From Acidiferrobacteraceae bacterium (GTDB lineage: Bacteria; Pseudomonadota; Gammaproteobacteria; Acidiferrobacterales; Sulfurifustaceae), in NCBI GenBank assembly GCA_021323795.1, contig JAJPKH010000306.1, positions 11,221 through 75,220 of the forward strand: a stretch of DNA of 64,000 nucleotides. The letters run 5' to 3'. How positions within the stretch are numbered: the stretch's first letter is position 1; the number at the start of each line of letters is the position of its first letter. The notes under the pieces are model-generated. The model was given only the letters and a program-made list of their open reading frames with translations. It made no database searches and was not told the origin of the DNA. Positions 23,155-29,098 of this stretch are shown piece by piece. The position numbers and the translations under genes are program-made.

Positions 23155-23784
23155 TTGCAACCGGATAGCGATGCGTACTACGGATCGAGAATCGTGAAAT
23201 TGAAACACGAAACCGACGCGGCCCCGAGCCGCGATGCCGCGGTCCGACGGCGCGGCCAACGGCTCGTGTTCGCCATCCCGCTCTTCGCGTTGATCGCGCT
23301 CGCGGCGTTCCTCGCCGTGGGCCTGGGGCGCGATCCCCGCCTGATCCCGTCGCCGCTGATTGGCCGGCCGGTTCCCGCGTTCGATTTGCCGCCTGTGCAG
23401 GGGCGGTCGCTCGGCCTCGCCAGCCGCGACCTCAAGGTCGAGGTATCGCTCGTCAACGTGTTTGCGTCCTGGTGTGTCGCGTGCCGCGAGGAGCATCCGC
23501 TGTTCATGCAGCTCGCGCGCGACCGCGTGGTGCCGATTCACGGGCTCAACTACAAGGACCGGCCGGCGGACGCCGAGCGCTGGCTCAACGAGATGGGCGA
23601 CCCCTACACCCGCACCGGTGCCGACCTCGACGGGCGCGTCGCCATCGATTGGGGCGTCTACGGCGTGCCGGAGACCTTCGTCATCGATCGCGCGGGACGC
23701 ATCGCGTATAAACATATCGGCCCGGTGAATCCCGACGTGCTGAACAATAAGATCCTGCCGCTGATCGAAAAGCTGCGTGAATGA
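23155..23784 (+). CDS. ccmG: DsbE/CcmG-type periplasmic thiol:disulfide oxidoreductase
   Basis: VNVFASWCVACREEHP, GLNYKD, WGVYGVPETFVIDRAGRI. The start is uncertain (TTG at 23155 or GTG at 23194). Confidence 0.87.
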   Translation: MQPDSDAYYGSRIVKLKHETDAAPSRDAAVRRRGQRLVFAIPLFALIALAAFLAVGLGRDPRLIPSPLIGRPVPAFDLPPVQGRSLGLASRDLKVEVSLVNVFASWCVACREEHPLFMQLARDRVVPIHGLNYKDRPADAERWLNEMGDPYTRTGADLDGRVAIDWGVYGVPETFVIDRAGRIAYKHIGPVNPDVLNNKILPLIEKLRE

Positions 23785-25163
23785 CTATGAATATCTCACG
23801 CCGAACGTTTCTGCGCGCCGCCGCCGGCATCGGTTTGTCCGCCGCCGCGCATCCCTGGCCCTTGGGAGCCGAGACACGGAGCAAGGTTCGCGAATTCCGA
23901 CTCCGCGCCGCGCCGGGCCACGCGCCGCTGCTCGGCGCCGGCCATCCGCAAACTGCGGTGTGGGCGTATAGCGGACAAGTGCCCGGTCCGGAAATCCGCG
24001 TGCGCCAGGGCGACCGCGTTCGTATCCAGGTCGAGAACCGGCTGCCCGAGGAGACGACGGTTCACTGGCACGGTATACGCGTCCCGAACGCCATGGACGG
24101 CGTGCCGTACTTGACGCAGAAGCCGATTGCGCGCGGCGCGACGTTCCGCTACGAGTTCGACGTGCCGGACGCGGGCTCGTACTGGTATCACCCGCATTTT
24201 CGCAGCTACGAGCAGGCGGGCCGCGGCCTGTACGGGCTGCTGATCGTCGAAGAGCGCGATCCGGTACCGTTCGATCGCGATATCGCCTGGCTGCTCGGCG
24301 ACTGGCGGCTCGATCGCGAGGCGCAAATCGTCGACGACTTCGACAACCGCATGGACGCCGGCATGGCCGGGCGCATCGGCAACCTGGTGACCATCAACGG
24401 CCGATCCGCGGCGCCGCTGCGGGTGCGCGCCGGCGAGCGCGTGCGGTTGCGGCTGTACAACTCCGCCAATGCGCGCATTTTCGGTCTGGTCTTCCGCGGT
24501 CACCGGCCGCTCGTCATCGCAATCGACGGACAGCCGGTTGAGCCGCACGCGCCGGCGAACGGCAGAATCATCTTGGGTCCCGCGATGCGGGTCGATCTCA
24601 TGCTGGACATGACCGGCGCTCCGGGCGAGCGGTTCGCGGTGCGCGACACGTTCTACCCCATGCGGGCTTACAGCGTGGGCGAGATCGTTTACGCCGACGA
24701 GCCACCGCGGCGGCAGCGCCCGCCGGGGCCGCCGCCGCGCCTCCCGCCGAACCCGATCCCGGAGCCCGCTGTCGAGAAGGCCGAGCGGCACACGATCGCC
24801 TTCGGCGGCGGCATGATGGGCGGCGCGGACGGCGGCGGTATCTGGACGGTCAACGGCAAAAGCGCGAGCGGTCATGCGCATGAGCCCTTTCTGCGCCTCA
24901 AGCGCGGAAAGTCCTACGTGCTGGCGATGCACAACAACACCGCCTGGCATCACCCGATTCACCTTCATGGATATACGTTTCGCGTGATGGCGCGCAACGG
25001 CCGCCCGACCCGGTTCCGCGAGTGGCAGGACACCGTGTTCATGGATCCCGACGAGAAAGTCGAGATCGCGTTCGTCGCCGACAATCCCGGCGACTGGATG
25101 ATCCACTGTCATATCCTGGAGCACATGCAGACCGGGTTAATGGGTGTTATCCGTGTGAGTTGA
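23781..25163 (+). CDS. Tat-exported multicopper oxidase
   Basis: Twin-arginine signal ISRRTFLRAAAG. Copper ligand motifs HWHGIRV, YWYHPH, HPIHLHG and HCHILEHMQTGLM. Confidence 0.92.
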   Translation: MTMNISRRTFLRAAAGIGLSAAAHPWPLGAETRSKVREFRLRAAPGHAPLLGAGHPQTAVWAYSGQVPGPEIRVRQGDRVRIQVENRLPEETTVHWHGIRVPNAMDGVPYLTQKPIARGATFRYEFDVPDAGSYWYHPHFRSYEQAGRGLYGLLIVEERDPVPFDRDIAWLLGDWRLDREAQIVDDFDNRMDAGMAGRIGNLVTINGRSAAPLRVRAGERVRLRLYNSANARIFGLVFRGHRPLVIAIDGQPVEPHAPANGRIILGPAMRVDLMLDMTGAPGERFAVRDTFYPMRAYSVGEIVYADEPPRRQRPPGPPPRLPPNPIPEPAVEKAERHTIAFGGGMMGGADGGGIWTVNGKSASGHAHEPFLRLKRGKSYVLAMHNNTAWHHPIHLHGYTFRVMARNGRPTRFREWQDTVFMDPDEKVEIAFVADNPGDWMIHCHILEHMQTGLMGVIRVS

Positions 25164-25187: not shown

Positions 25188-25643
25188 ATGAAGATGAAAG
25201 CACTTGTAATCTTGCTTGCCGCCGTCGCATTCGGCGTCGCTGGCGCCGCTGCCCAGGACCGTCCTATGGAGCAGGACCGCCCGGCGCAGCAGGATCGCCC
25301 GCGGGGGCAGGACGGCATGATGGGGCAAGGTGGGATGATGGGCCAGGGCGGGATGATGGGGCAGGGACAGCGCCGCATGCCGAACCTCAAGGAGCTGCCA
25401 GCCGAGCGGCTGGTGAAGTCGGTACGCTACTGCGACCGCAAATACTTCGTCACTAACACGGCCGGCGATGTGTTGGAGTTCAGGGATTTCGACCTGCGCT
25501 TCAAAACCGACGCCGGCGACCAGGGGCCGCGCCGTGGCGCGCCGGCGCTGCTGCCGGCCGGCATGATGGGCGATCGGGCGTTTTTGATTTTCTCGGATCC
25601 CGGCGACATCAGTAGATACATCGAGAAAAAATGCAGCGGATAA
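25188..25643 (+). CDS. Secreted protein with QDRP repeats, GMMGQG repeats and an uncharacterised ~75-aa two-Cys C-terminal domain
   Basis: Signal peptide, then QDRPMEQDRPAQQDRPRGQDGMMGQGGMMGQGGMMGQG. The C-domain VRYCDRKYFVTNTAGDVLEFRDFDLRFKTD...GDRAFLIFSDPGDISRYIEKKC is shared with 26546-27235. Confidence 0.65.
   Translation: MKMKALVILLAAVAFGVAGAAAQDRPMEQDRPAQQDRPRGQDGMMGQGGMMGQGGMMGQGQRRMPNLKELPAERLVKSVRYCDRKYFVTNTAGDVLEFRDFDLRFKTDAGDQGPRRGAPALLPAGMMGDRAFLIFSDPGDISRYIEKKCSG
25314..25367 (+). repeat. Three tandem 18-nt units encoding GMMGQG
   Basis: ggcatgatggggcaaggt / gggatgatgggccagggc / gggatgatggggcaggga, in frame with the CDS. Confidence 0.8.
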
Positions 25644-25945
25644 GCGCTGCCATACCGGCGCTACGCATGGGAAGCGGGCTTCACCGCGCGATACGTGAGG
25701 CCTCGCGGAGCCGGTCACGCACTGCAGCGGAGATGGTCGATCGTGCGAAGCTGAGCGCTCGGCGCTTTGGCGAGGGGGCCATCAATCAGGCCCGGCCAGT
25801 GGCATCACGTTTGCGAAAACCCTAGCACGAAATGGGTCTCGTGCCGAACCGGAGCGGGCCTTGGGACGCGCAACGCGTTCATCGGCGACCGGCGTGCACA
25901 GGGAGGTTTTGTTTGGGGTAGACGTTTCGAACTGTGGAGGTTGTC

Positions 25946-26302
25946 ATGGATATCAAGCATGTCATTGCCATCTTCCCGCGCGATCGGCTCGAGGCGGTCG
26001 AGCAAAGGCTGCAGCGGATCAATGTCGAGCGCGTCGATGTCTGCAAGGTCAGGGGATACGGCGAGTATCGCAATTTCTACACGCGGGACTGTATGGTCGA
26101 CGAAGTGAGAATGGACATCTTCACGTGGCAGGACGAAGTCGACCGTATCACGGCGGCGATCATGGACGGCGCGCATACGGGTGCGCCCGGCGACGGCGTC
26201 GTCGCCGTCGTCCCGGTAGAAAAGTTCTTTTTGATCCGCACGCGCGCCGAGGCGACCCCCGAACAGTTCTGGCCCAAGGACGCGGGAGGGACATCGGCAT
26301 GA
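25946..26302 (+). CDS. PII (GlnB)-like small signalling-fold protein in a metal context
   Basis: MDIKHVIAIFPRDRLEAVEQRLQRINVERVDVCKVRGYGE...GAPGDGVVAVVPVEKFFLIRT follows the PII beta-alpha-beta pattern, including the GDG(K/V) box. GGAGG RBS. Confidence 0.78.
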   Translation: MDIKHVIAIFPRDRLEAVEQRLQRINVERVDVCKVRGYGEYRNFYTRDCMVDEVRMDIFTWQDEVDRITAAIMDGAHTGAPGDGVVAVVPVEKFFLIRTRAEATPEQFWPKDAGGTSA

Positions 26303-26544
26303 AAAACGCGGCGGTTCTGACCACGGCAAGCGATCCTGTTTGCGGCATGACGGTGAATCCGTCAACGGCCGCGCAGCGCGCGGAACACGCCGGCGTCACC
26401 CGTCATTTTTGCGGTGCAGGTTGCGCCGCCAAATTCCGCAAGGATACGGCTGCGCCCTGCCGAAGTGCGGCATGGCGCTCAAGCCGGCCGCACCTGCTGC
26501 TGCGCATCCGCGCCACGGCGGCACCACGACACGAAGGAGGATAG
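26299..26544 (+). CDS. YHS/TRASH-domain metal-binding protein. The C-terminal part is of doubtful frame.
   Basis: SDPVCGMTVNPSTAAQRAEHAGVTRHFCGAGCAAKFRKD is a YHS domain. ATGA overlap with the PII-like gene. The tail is Arg-rich, whereas an alternative frame reads GCALPKCGMALKP. Confidence 0.65.
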   Translation: MKNAAVLTTASDPVCGMTVNPSTAAQRAEHAGVTRHFCGAGCAAKFRKDTAAPCRSAAWRSSRPHLLLRIRATAAPRHEGG

Positions 26545-26545
26545 G

Positions 26546-27235
26546 ATGACCCGCTCCTGGCAGCACATTCTTCTCGCGTCCGCTTTTCTTATGGCGTCGC
26601 CGGTATCCGCCGCCGGCGATCCCGAGAAAGGCGCGCAAGCCTACGGTGTTTGCGCCGGATGCCACGCGCTCGAACCCGGTCGACACTTGAGCGGCCCGAG
26701 CCTCGCGCGCATCTACGGCCGCAAGGCGGGAACGGTGGAAGGGTTCGTACGGTATTCGAAAGCCCTTAAACAATCGAAGATCGTCTGGGATGAGAAAACG
26801 CTCGATGCCTGGATCAAGAAGCCGGACGCGCTGATCCCCGAGAACCTGATGCCGTTTCCCGGAATCCCGGATGCGCAGGCACGCGCCGATCTCGTGGCGT
26901 TCCTCAAGAACGCCGGAGCCAAAGGCGGAACCGCCGGCGCACCGGCGGAGGGAAAGAGGCAGACGCCGGACCTGCCACACCTCAAGCAGGCTCCCGCCGA
27001 AAATCAGGTCAAGGCGATACGCTATTGTCGCGATTCCTATTTCGTCACGGTCGCAACCGGCAAAGTCTTACCGTACTGGGAATTCAACTTGCGCCTGAAA
27101 ACGGACTCGAGCGCGAATGGTCCGGCGAAAGGCAAGCCGGTACTGACCGGCGCCGGCATGCGCGGCGACCGCGCCTCGATCGTATTCGCGAACCCGGCGG
27201 AGATCAGCCGCTTCGTGCAGCAACGCTGTGAGTAG
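26546..27235 (+). CDS. Cytochrome c2-like domain fused to the same uncharacterised two-Cys C-terminal domain as 25188-25643
   Basis: Signal peptide, CAGCHALEP haem site, and LMPFPGI distal Met. C-domain IRYCRDSYFVTVATGKVLPYWEFNLRLKTD...GDRASIVFANPAEISRFVQQRC. AGGAGG RBS. Confidence 0.8.
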   Translation: MTRSWQHILLASAFLMASPVSAAGDPEKGAQAYGVCAGCHALEPGRHLSGPSLARIYGRKAGTVEGFVRYSKALKQSKIVWDEKTLDAWIKKPDALIPENLMPFPGIPDAQARADLVAFLKNAGAKGGTAGAPAEGKRQTPDLPHLKQAPAENQVKAIRYCRDSYFVTVATGKVLPYWEFNLRLKTDSSANGPAKGKPVLTGAGMRGDRASIVFANPAEISRFVQQRCE

Positions 27236-27356: not shown

Positions 27357-28403
27357 ATGGTGCTGCTCGTCATTTCTAAACGGCAGTTGGCTTGCGTAGC
27401 GGCGCTCGCGCTGCTGCCGGCGATCACCTGGGCGGATCATCGGGTCGGGGTTTTCGGCCCAAGCGCAGGCGGTCCGGTGGTAACGCCGACGGCGAATACA
27501 CTGCCCGCCGGCAACTGGAGTCTCGGTATCTACAACGAATATCGACGTTTCGATACGCCAAACCGAAATGCGCTACAGGCACAAGCCGCCGCGGAGGGCG
27601 GTCACGTGCACAGCCTGCGCGATCTTTGGTCGCCCTCGCTCGCCGTCTCCTACGGGCTCGATGATCGCGTTACGCTGGCGGCTGCGTTGCCCTATGTGAA
27701 GCGAAGCGGTCTCCAAGAGGCCCACGTACACGCCAGCGGAACCACCGGGGTGCATGAACTGGGCGACTCGGCGGGACTCGGGGATATCAGCCTTACCGGG
27801 TACTGGCGCTTCTGGGAGAACCGCCGTGGCAGCGCGGCCGCGTTGAGTTTCGGCACCTTTCTGCCGACGGGCGCGACGGACGAGCGCGACGAAGAAGGCG
27901 AGCGCCTCGGCACCGAGCACCAACCGGGCAGCGGCGCCTGGCGGCCCTTTGCCGGCGTGACGGTTAGCCGCGAGCTGGCCGCGCTCGGATGGCACGCTCA
28001 CCTGCGTTACACCTGGGCGACGGAAGGCGCGCAAGAGACGGACTTGGGGGATAGGATCGATTACGGCGTGGCGCTCAGCTATCGGCTCACGGGGACAACC
28101 GAACAACCGGCGCCCCACGAACATGGGCCGGGTGCAAGCGACCACCATCACCAAGACGATGAACACCTGCAGTGGGATCTGTTGCTCGAGCTCAACGGCG
28201 AATACCAGCGGCCGCAGCGGATCGGCGGCATGGCGGAAGGCGGGAGCGAGCGCATCGTATATCTGGCTCCCGGCTTGCGGGCTACCGGAAACAGCGGTTG
28301 GACGGCGGCGTTGTCGCTCGGCGTGCCCGTAAGCCAACAGGCCGGAGCAGGTCACATCGAGACGGACTGGCGTGCGCTGGCGACGGCGGGCTATGCGTTC
28401 TAG
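27357..28403 (+). CDS. Outer-membrane beta-barrel protein (MetA-pathway/transporter-like) with His-rich loops
   Basis: Signal peptide ...LLPAITWA, alternating beta-strand pattern, loop HEHGPGASDHHHQDDEH, and terminal aromatic residues ...TAGYAF. Confidence 0.68.
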   Translation: MVLLVISKRQLACVAALALLPAITWADHRVGVFGPSAGGPVVTPTANTLPAGNWSLGIYNEYRRFDTPNRNALQAQAAAEGGHVHSLRDLWSPSLAVSYGLDDRVTLAAALPYVKRSGLQEAHVHASGTTGVHELGDSAGLGDISLTGYWRFWENRRGSAAALSFGTFLPTGATDERDEEGERLGTEHQPGSGAWRPFAGVTVSRELAALGWHAHLRYTWATEGAQETDLGDRIDYGVALSYRLTGTTEQPAPHEHGPGASDHHHQDDEHLQWDLLLELNGEYQRPQRIGGMAEGGSERIVYLAPGLRATGNSGWTAALSLGVPVSQQAGAGHIETDWRALATAGYAF

Positions 28404-28705: not shown

Positions 28706-29098
28706 ATGAAGAAGAATAGTAAGCAAGCGCGCATTGGCCTGGTGTTGGCGATTTCGCTCATGATGGCGGTACAGCCGGCCTGGGCAGGCGTTTGCGCTAT
28801 ATCCGCGTCGTTACCGGCTTGTGGTCAGGACGGACACGAGTCGCACTCGCACGATGCTTCGACTGCATCCCAGGACAGCGCTACGAACGAACACTTCGGC
28901 GCCGGCGGAAAGCAGCCGGCGTCGCAGCACGGCGGATTGAGCTGTCCGGCGTCGGCCGGCTGTGCCTTGGCCGTGCTCGTGCTGCCGCAATCGCTCTTGT
29001 CTCACTGCATTCCTCCCGCGTCCTCTGTGCCCCTGTACACCGCCGATGGTATGACGTCGGTGGACGGCCCGCCGCCCTTCCGACCTCCAATCGCCTAG
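28706..29098 (+). CDS. Small secreted/membrane Cys/His-containing protein heading the cus operon
   Basis: 130 aa with a signal-like N-terminus, GHESHSHD, several Cys, a second hydrophobic segment CALAVLVLPQSLL, and the ending GPPPFRPPIA. Confidence 0.45.
   Translation: MKKNSKQARIGLVLAISLMMAVQPAWAGVCAISASLPACGQDGHESHSHDASTASQDSATNEHFGAGGKQPASQHGGLSCPASAGCALAVLVLPQSLLSHCIPPASSVPLYTADGMTSVDGPPPFRPPIA

Follow-up and report, generated by a model that had tools for sequence, protein, structure and literature searches.

A previously unnamed C-terminal domain shared by a methionine-rich secreted protein and a class I cytochrome c in a bacterial copper cluster

Two secreted proteins encoded close to each other in a heavy-metal island of an Acidiferrobacteraceae bacterium carry the same C-terminal domain, referred to here as X. 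To judge by its sequence and predicted structure, X is a genuine, previously unnamed extracytoplasmic domain, outside every described family and without a relative of solved structure. The proteins are encoded on a 64,000-nucleotide stretch of GenBank assembly GCA_021323795.1 (contig JAJPKH010000306.1, positions 11,221 to 75,220 of the forward strand), which as a whole is called the window below. One of them, MetX, is rich in methionine; the other, cytochrome c-X, joins X to a haem c domain. Accounts of periplasmic copper detoxification usually centre on multicopper oxidases, Cus pumps and a small number of chaperones. The copper homeostasis setting of the two proteins is well known and the haem domain is ordinary; the newness lies in X. 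Its fusion to cytochrome c beside copper-detoxifying genes suggests a link between copper handling and electron transfer that may so far have escaped study.

The X domain and its two carriers in the window

The C-termini of MetX (151 amino acids, aa) and cytochrome c-X (229 aa) align in BLASTP with 44 identities over 94 positions (47%), 71% positives and E=3e-32. By this alignment the two C-terminal parts are homologous, and chance similarity is excluded. A preliminary description of the window had estimated roughly 45% identity by eye and had named a non-significant E-value as one result that would speak against a shared domain; the estimate was close and the E-value is highly significant. 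Both translations that it quoted are found where it had placed them, and so are the partner regions it described, namely a signal peptide followed by three QDRP and three GMMGQG repeats in MetX and a class I haem c domain with a CAGCH motif in the fusion. A six-frame hidden Markov model (HMM) scan of the whole window returned exactly two copies of X, at 25377-25634 (E=3e-41) and 26975-27232 (E=9e-43), and no third copy in any of its 64 kb. The features of the two genes are as follows (pLDDT, predicted local distance difference test).

25188..25643, + strand: MetX gene, encoding a 151-aa secreted Met-rich protein with C-terminal X
25188..25253, + strand: Sec-type signal peptide of MetX, MKMKALVILLAAVAFGVAGAAA, assigned by eye from the sequence
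25254..25376, + strand: low-complexity arm of MetX, QDRP three times, then GMMGQG three times
25377..25634, + strand: X domain copy 1, profile positions 1-86, with the C-terminal Cys as its end (BLASTP, HMM scan, AlphaFold model with pLDDT 93)
26546..27235, + strand: cytochrome c-X fusion gene, 229 aa, ATG 26546 behind the ribosome-binding site GAAGGAGG
26621..26914, + strand: class I (mitochondrial/c2-like) cytochrome c domain (Pfam, NCBIfam and PDB matches, model)
26651-26665, + strand: CAGCH haem-attachment motif
26915..26974, + strand: flexible linker of cytochrome c-X, pLDDT 48-73 in the full-length model
26975..27232, + strand: X domain copy 2 (BLASTP, HMM scan, full-length model)

The MetX gene starts 24 nucleotides (nt) past the stop codon of a multicopper oxidase gene and has a ribosome-binding site, GAAGGAG, 6 nt upstream. 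Cytochrome c-X starts at ATG 26546 and not at GTG 26414 of the mechanical open reading frame (ORF) 26414-27235, and its resulting length of 229 aa agrees with the database entry P0240; residue numbers from queries begun at 26543 are shifted by +1. Neither protein of the window was present in the sequence collection in an exact-sequence look-up.

The N-terminal half of the 229-aa protein reads as a bona fide, ordinary class I cytochrome c. It matches PF00034 with E=1.1e-6 and 30.3 bits (cutoff 21.3) and PDB cytochromes c with E=8e-19, it is modelled as a helical cytochrome c domain with pLDDT 86-97, and a candidate for the axial Met lies within NLMPFPG. The Pfam and PDB matches end at about residue 124, so that the X region falls outside PF00034, and X alone has no cytochrome match. 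Canonical class I cytochromes c and c2 end after their C-terminal helix, whereas here a linker and X continue. The linker is not Met-rich in the window protein, in contrast to many relatives, in which it is Gly/Met-rich.

X comprises about 85 residues, starts with (P)NLK and nearly always forms the C-terminus of its protein, with 0-5 residues beyond its last Cys. Near-invariant positions are V13, C19, Y23, G30, E37, L40, R41, K43, D45 and G50, followed in the second part by P51, G54, P56, G65, D66, R67, F72, P75, E77 and C86, and the motifs are EFNLRFKTD, GPxxGxP and AGM(M)GDRA. The preliminary description had proposed a domain of about 75 aa that begins and ends with a conserved Cys. The shared domain is real, but the conserved unit is longer; the second Cys (86) does lie at or next to the C-terminus, whereas the first (19) is internal because the unit begins about 18 residues earlier with the conserved (P)NLK motif. 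Both Cys are present in 171 of 176 X sequences, and the remaining five keep Cys86 without Cys19. The two residues would most likely be joined in a structural disulfide and so hold the C-terminus against strand 1; on the evidence of their conservation, the disulfide clamp that the preliminary description had suggested is plausible.

An AlphaFold2 model of isolated X, built from a 61-sequence alignment, reached pLDDT 93 and a predicted template modelling score (pTM) of 0.83. Its secondary structure comprises six or seven short strands and a single short helix, and the predicted fold is an all-beta small barrel with a short C-terminal helix. In the model of the full-length fusion (mean pLDDT 85.6, pTM 0.67) both domains are confident and the 20-residue linker between them is disordered; the AGMRGDRA loop is the lowest-confidence part of X, with pLDDT 67.

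The preliminary description had recognised no named family in this domain, an impression that held in every comparison. Searches of Pfam-A (2025) and NCBIfam (2026) at E<=10 with the two window proteins and 31 X members gave only noise for X, the best being MOSC_N (E=0.04, 14 bits, cutoff 25) and ERMP1_C, which appeared in 6 of the 31 members with E>=0.039. Among 177,635 PDB sequences, nothing scored below E=0.17 when X was used as a single sequence or as a profile. Foldseek comparison of the X model with 350,542 PDB chains, one of the checks that the preliminary description had suggested, gave a best E of 0.25 and template modelling (TM) scores of at most 0.41, with no copper protein in the top 50 and no match at E<=0.001; a comparison with BFVD gave no significant match either. 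Neither by sequence profile nor by fold does X match a solved periplasmic copper protein such as CusF, CopG or CueP. IF1, eIF1A and S1 recur among the top Foldseek matches (TM 0.30-0.41, E 0.05-0.7), and the Tudor domain of the Lamin-B receptor appears with E=0.77. Such small barrels (OB/S1/IF1, Tudor/SH3) are the sole recurring echoes of X; because every one of these matches lies below significance, which for the OB-fold was set at TM>0.5 and a Foldseek E<1e-3, neither OB-fold, S1 or IF1-like membership nor a Tudor/SH3-like one was accepted. CusF, the periplasmic Cu(I)/Ag(I) chaperone, resembles X in being small, periplasmic, all-beta and encoded in Cus operons. X differs from it in its Cys pair and in lacking the Met2-His-Trp site, and there is no sequence similarity. 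A relationship to CusF was rejected by hhalign, which gave a probability of 0.2% for X against the window's own CusF (PF11604), and X has no conserved His/Trp ligand set.

In RefSeq and GenBank, proteins with X are named 'c-type cytochrome', 'cytochrome c' or 'hypothetical protein', and the JGI annotation reads 'cytochrome c' even for fragments that consist of X only. In the literature, searches with concepts and with accession numbers brought up no account of X. The domain deserves a family entry of its own, hidden as it is behind thousands of 'c-type cytochrome' annotations.

Distribution, architectures and gene neighbourhoods of X

With either window copy of X as query, about 94 clusters at 90% identity were recovered. 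When 1.84 billion cluster representatives at 50% identity were searched exhaustively with a profile, 588 matched with E<=1e-3 and 377 with E<=1e-10. The full-length fusion retrieved 2,509 clusters at 90% identity with E<=1e-20, some of which may be plain cytochromes c; the sole precomputed Pfam domain in them is PF00034. Among 185,579 species-representative genomes, X occurs in 335, mainly of Alpha-, Beta- and Gammaproteobacteria (Bradyrhizobium, Xanthobacteraceae, Rhodospirillales, Pelomicrobium, Aromatoleum, Burkholderiales and Sulfurifustis), with scattered metagenome-assembled genomes (MAGs) of other phyla in addition. A tblastn search of 72,556 plasmids located X on 26 plasmids or megaplasmids, 14 of them conjugative, from Paraburkholderia, Burkholderia contaminans, Ralstonia, Cupriavidus, Nitrobacter hamburgensis, Rhodopseudomonas, Bradyrhizobium and Roseibium/Labrenzia. 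Two plasmid copies, on Afipia carboxidovorans pOC167 (L088:6740-7210) and Bradyrhizobium BTAi1 pBBta01 (L082:7007-7237), are annotated as hypothetical proteins and are degraded cytochrome c-X remnants with a truncated haem domain and mutated X motifs; they were not accepted as intact X genes.

CopJ of R. gelatinosus, a small cytochrome-c-like protein of about 14 kDa that is induced by copper and whose function is unknown (PMC4600104), is also a periplasmic CxxC(H) protein of a copper-resistance cluster. Its published size is too small for cytochrome c plus X. The identity of cytochrome c-X with CopJ was doubted on this ground and on the lack of X on plasmids of C. metallidurans, which is not among the 26 plasmid records of the tblastn search.

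Three architectures of X can be distinguished. In the dominant one, a cytochrome c2-like domain is followed by a linker, often with GGMMGG, and by X; CxxCH precedes X within the same ORF in 62 of 78 genome ORFs. The second consists of a signal peptide, a (GGMMG)n arm and X and includes MetX of the window. It represents a distinct subfamily, as 46 of 62 nearest neighbours share the architecture, and arms like that of MetX precede X both in this stand-alone subfamily and in many cytochrome fusions. In the third, X directly follows a signal peptide. Some of these X-only proteins (P0186, P0194, P0196 and P0234) display HxGH directly after the predicted signal-peptide cleavage site, and this motif might serve as a Cu(II)-type site at the N-terminus in place of the Met-rich arm.

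The only credible fusion partner of X is cytochrome c, plus X itself in tandem; a look at fusion partners was among the checks that the preliminary description had suggested. The tandem is seen in P0095 (347 aa, metagenome), in which cytochrome c is followed by two X domains, the first without both Cys and the second with both. A split-gene counterpart of the fusion also exists, in which a redoxin-like gene is followed by an X-only gene and a separate cytochrome c gene. Two other candidates were set aside: P0131 (SCO1, cytochrome c and X) has an internal signal peptide and therefore probably represents two merged gene calls, and P0215 (DUF1254 and X) is a single divergent case.

In the window, the first X gene, MetX, comes after the TlpA-like and multicopper oxidase genes, and the second, cytochrome c-X, comes after the P-II-like and YHS ORFs that follow MetX.

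23155..23784, + strand: TlpA-like thioredoxin-fold protein, its stop overlapping the start of the multicopper oxidase gene
23781..25163, + strand: three-domain compact laccase-like multicopper oxidase, exported by twin-arginine translocation, without the Met-rich insert of CueO type
25934-26302, + strand: P-II-like ORF
26299-26544, + strand: YHS-domain ORF

The P-II-like ORF shares 4 nt with the YHS ORF, and the start of cytochrome c-X lies 1 nt beyond the YHS stop; as the reading frames are arranged, both ORFs are translationally coupled to the cytochrome c-X gene.

Neighbours in other genomes were counted at 53 related loci in which X is flanked by 3.5 kb or more on each side. Counts were taken from tblastn and de novo clustering was set aside, because antisense ORFs and merged clusters inflated the latter in GC-rich loci, as in an oxidase cluster of '51 loci'. 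Homologues of the copper or thiol-redox genes of the window are found in 44 of the 53 loci, so that the modular reuse in a copper cluster described for the window extends to the family as a whole. A multicopper oxidase or CusA is present in 41; among the remaining loci, L025 has a P-type ATPase and a CsoR-like gene, and others have small Cys-rich proteins beside cytochrome c-X.

A compact multicopper oxidase is encoded directly upstream of X on the same strand in 12 loci. From the oxidase stop to the cytochrome c-X start, the distance is -1 to 15 nt in nine measurable loci from different lineages, including Chloroflexi, Rhodospirillales, Acetobacteraceae and Geminicoccaceae MAGs, and on Labrenzia pBCL1 the two genes overlap by 4 nt. 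CusA takes the directly upstream position on the same strand in 15 loci, with X genes directly after CusA in Nitrobacteraceae. Downstream, the direct neighbour on the same strand is a S-adenosylmethionine-dependent methyltransferase in 12 loci, a TlpA-like protein in 9, CopG/DUF411 in 9, a redoxin in 5 and Sco in 3. Taken together, X is a conserved, autonomous secreted domain that both fusion and adjacency tie evolutionarily to a c-type cytochrome. It is tied likewise to Met-rich arms and to operons whose genes serve the oxidation and efflux of periplasmic copper and the reduction of thiols.

On the Nitrobacteraceae plasmids, the gap between CusA and cytochrome c-X is filled by an ORF of 44-45 codons that reads MMNGMMMPGMMWGM... 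and then one transmembrane helix. It is located at L085:7387-7521 on a Bradyrhizobium betae plasmid and at the same position in L083 and L087, and its reading frame continues into cytochrome c-X in P0125, a protein from a metagenome. This ORF may encode a Met-rich membrane micro-protein of this Cus variant.

Possible roles of X in periplasmic copper handling

The docking or metal-handling function that the preliminary description had suggested for X is plausible in the light of these neighbourhoods. We tentatively favour the reading in which X would be the folded core of a module that handles copper in the periplasm and couples the capture of Cu(I) to a redox partner, either haem c or an oxidase. 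The flexible Met-rich arm would capture Cu(I). In this it would probably be assisted by the conserved, mobile AGM(M)GD loop and by the acidic residues of KTD in X, and the resulting Met/Asp environment would be akin to the substrate-copper site of CueO. Stand-alone MetX could then present Cu(I) in trans to the neighbouring insert-less oxidase, while the fused haem c could exchange an electron with the bound copper or with the type 1 (T1) copper of the oxidase. Interconversion of Cu(I) and Cu(II) would thereby be linked to the cytochrome and not only to O2.

Such a mechanism would fit the recruitment of Cu+ by the Met-rich insert of CueO to a Met/Asp substrate site and the importance of CueO catalytic activity under anaerobic conditions, for which the electron acceptor, like the way in which Cu(I) is oxidised without O2, is explicitly an open question (PMC12510620). 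It would likewise fit the proposed interconversion of Cu(I) and Cu(II) by CopG, which also matters anaerobically (PMC7558416). The likeness to the CueO insert consists in a Gly/Met-rich segment beside a periplasmic multicopper oxidase, with the AGM(M)GD loop of X following the (GGMMG)n arms. In contrast to CueO, the Met-rich segment belongs here to a secreted protein of its own or to a cytochrome c, where it is joined to X; there is no sequence homology, X has no counterpart in CueO, and the neighbouring oxidase lacks the insert. The closest PDB entries of the window oxidase are 6vox, 6vow and 4f7k. It aligns end to end with an engineered CueO without the Met-rich region (2yxv), whereas alignments with wild-type CueO break at residue 266, and a short GGGMMGG occupies the site of the CueO insert. 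CopG/DUF411, too, is an accessory periplasmic protein with genetic links to multicopper oxidase and Cus; it differs from X in its thioredoxin-like fold and its CxCC tetranuclear copper cluster, and the two are unrelated in sequence.

At least two Met occur within the 30 residues before X in about half of the sequences, and sequences with such a Met-rich linker tend also to have Met64 in the GM[M]GDRA loop (odds ratio 6.0, Fisher p=1e-12, uncorrected for phylogeny). Several points weigh against a copper-handling core. The correlation between Met64 and the linker may reflect shared ancestry. X has no conserved His, and Met63 (81%) and Met64 (51%) are less conserved than would be expected of an obligate Cu(I) site. 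Roughly half of the sequences, the cytochrome fusion of the window among them, have no Met-rich linker, and X-only proteins exist, so that the Met-rich arm is not essential. In addition, a cytochrome c at about +250 mV would normally donate electrons to T1 copper and not accept them.

The pattern of conservation could also be read as that of a pure docking or adaptor domain, which we regard as unlikely. On this view X would be a beta barrel stapled by a disulfide, with the oxidase, CusB/CusA or TlpA/Sco as its binding partner; it would carry no metal of its own and merely position the fused part, be it the Met-rich arm, the N-terminal His motif or haem c. This would account well for variable N-terminal parts on a constant C-terminal X, for the flexible linker and for the tight gene coupling to differing partners, and most of the invariant residues (E37, R41, K43, D45, D66, R67 and Gly/Pro) are charged or have a structural role and are not classic copper ligands. 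However, proteins that consist of a signal peptide and X would be bare docking domains without an obvious function, three unrelated neighbours (oxidase, CusA and TlpA) would require one common surface, and the co-variation of Met64 with the linker suggests that the loop takes part in chemistry.

A different role of the Cys pair is conceivable in view of the thiol-redox genes around X. Orthologues of the TlpA-like protein of the window, with 64-79% identity, are encoded directly downstream of cytochrome c-X in the nine loci mentioned above, with an overlap of the two genes in Burkholderia contaminans, and CcdA, DsbD, Redoxin and Sco recur in X clusters. Cys19 and Cys86, both near-invariant, might accordingly be redox-active and kept reduced by the TlpA-like protein and CcdA, making X a TlpA client as Sco and CoxB are; they would then provide either a thiolate Cu(I) site together with Met63 or a dithiol/disulfide relay to haem. 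We consider this quite improbable. The two Cys lie 67 positions apart with one at the extreme C-terminus, as is typical of a structural disulfide, whereas known periplasmic thiolate copper sites have CxxxC or CxCC. Moreover, the Sco proteins of the same clusters already account for TlpA, and Cys19 is missing from the five representatives that retain Cys86.

Finally, cytochrome c-X might be a variant of respiratory or photosynthetic c2 that X tethers to an oxidase or to bc1, in other words a 'copper-proof spare cytochrome' that travels on metal-resistance islands and has an indirect link to copper. The haem domain is indeed of standard c2/mitochondrial type, CtaG/Cox11 and Sco genes are located nearby, and the assembly of c-type cytochromes is a known periplasmic target of copper (PMC4600104). 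This explanation nevertheless leaves the stand-alone Met-rich-X and X-only proteins, the Met-rich linkers, the coupling to the oxidase at 0-15 nt and the position after CusA unaccounted for, and we hold it to be very unlikely.

In a more far-reaching reading, MetX and cytochrome c-X would together constitute a dedicated periplasmic Cu(I):cytochrome c oxidoreductase, or the physiological redox partner of compact multicopper oxidases, on a route that is not directly dependent on O2. This reading appears doubtful to us. If true, it would mean that bacteria can oxidise copper, or reduce it for export by Cus, without direct dependence on O2 and by means of a fold without a solved relative. Cytochrome c-X is a concrete and testable candidate for a cytochrome-linked copper redox step, with X members available in cultivable Bradyrhizobium, Nitrobacter, Paraburkholderia, Burkholderia, Ralstonia and Roseibium.

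Other features of the metal island

Several observations concern the genes around the two X carriers. On Ralstonia plasmids (L081, L089), copper islands also contain P-II family genes, which there adjoin genes for an ICMT-like methyltransferase and DsbD. In the window region 26299-26549, the YHS ORF has a C-terminal half that does not look native. A different frame, 26340-26549, gives CALPKCGMALKP, a metal-binding motif of HMBD-like type, and may be a frameshifted remnant of the N-terminus of a P-type ATPase.

Between cytochrome c-X and CusF-CusCBA, the window encodes a 348-aa protein (27357-28403) with a signal peptide, a His-rich segment, HEHGPGASDHHHQDDEH, and the ending ...GYAF, like that of an outer-membrane beta-barrel; it has no Pfam match even at E<=1. 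A His/Cys-containing secreted protein is encoded at 28706-29098, upstream of CusF. In other loci, secreted proteins of about 100-130 aa without a Pfam match recur upstream of FixH/YtkA-CusBA or of cytochrome c-X, several of them with MPCCP...C...C; examples are L085:1929-2285 and, directly upstream of cytochrome c-X, genes in L034 and L064. The window ORF 28706-29098 may be related to these MPCCP...C...C proteins.

The window as a whole represents a composite heavy-metal island with two resistance-nodulation-division (RND) systems, three P1B-type ATPases with HMA domains and a MerA-like oxidoreductase. It also encodes CtaG/Cox11, two Sco proteins, DsbA, CcdA, thioredoxin-like proteins, a MacB-like pair, FtsH and a phosphoketolase. 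On plasmid 2 of Nitrobacter hamburgensis (L083), the equivalent island is likewise bordered by a phosphoketolase gene.

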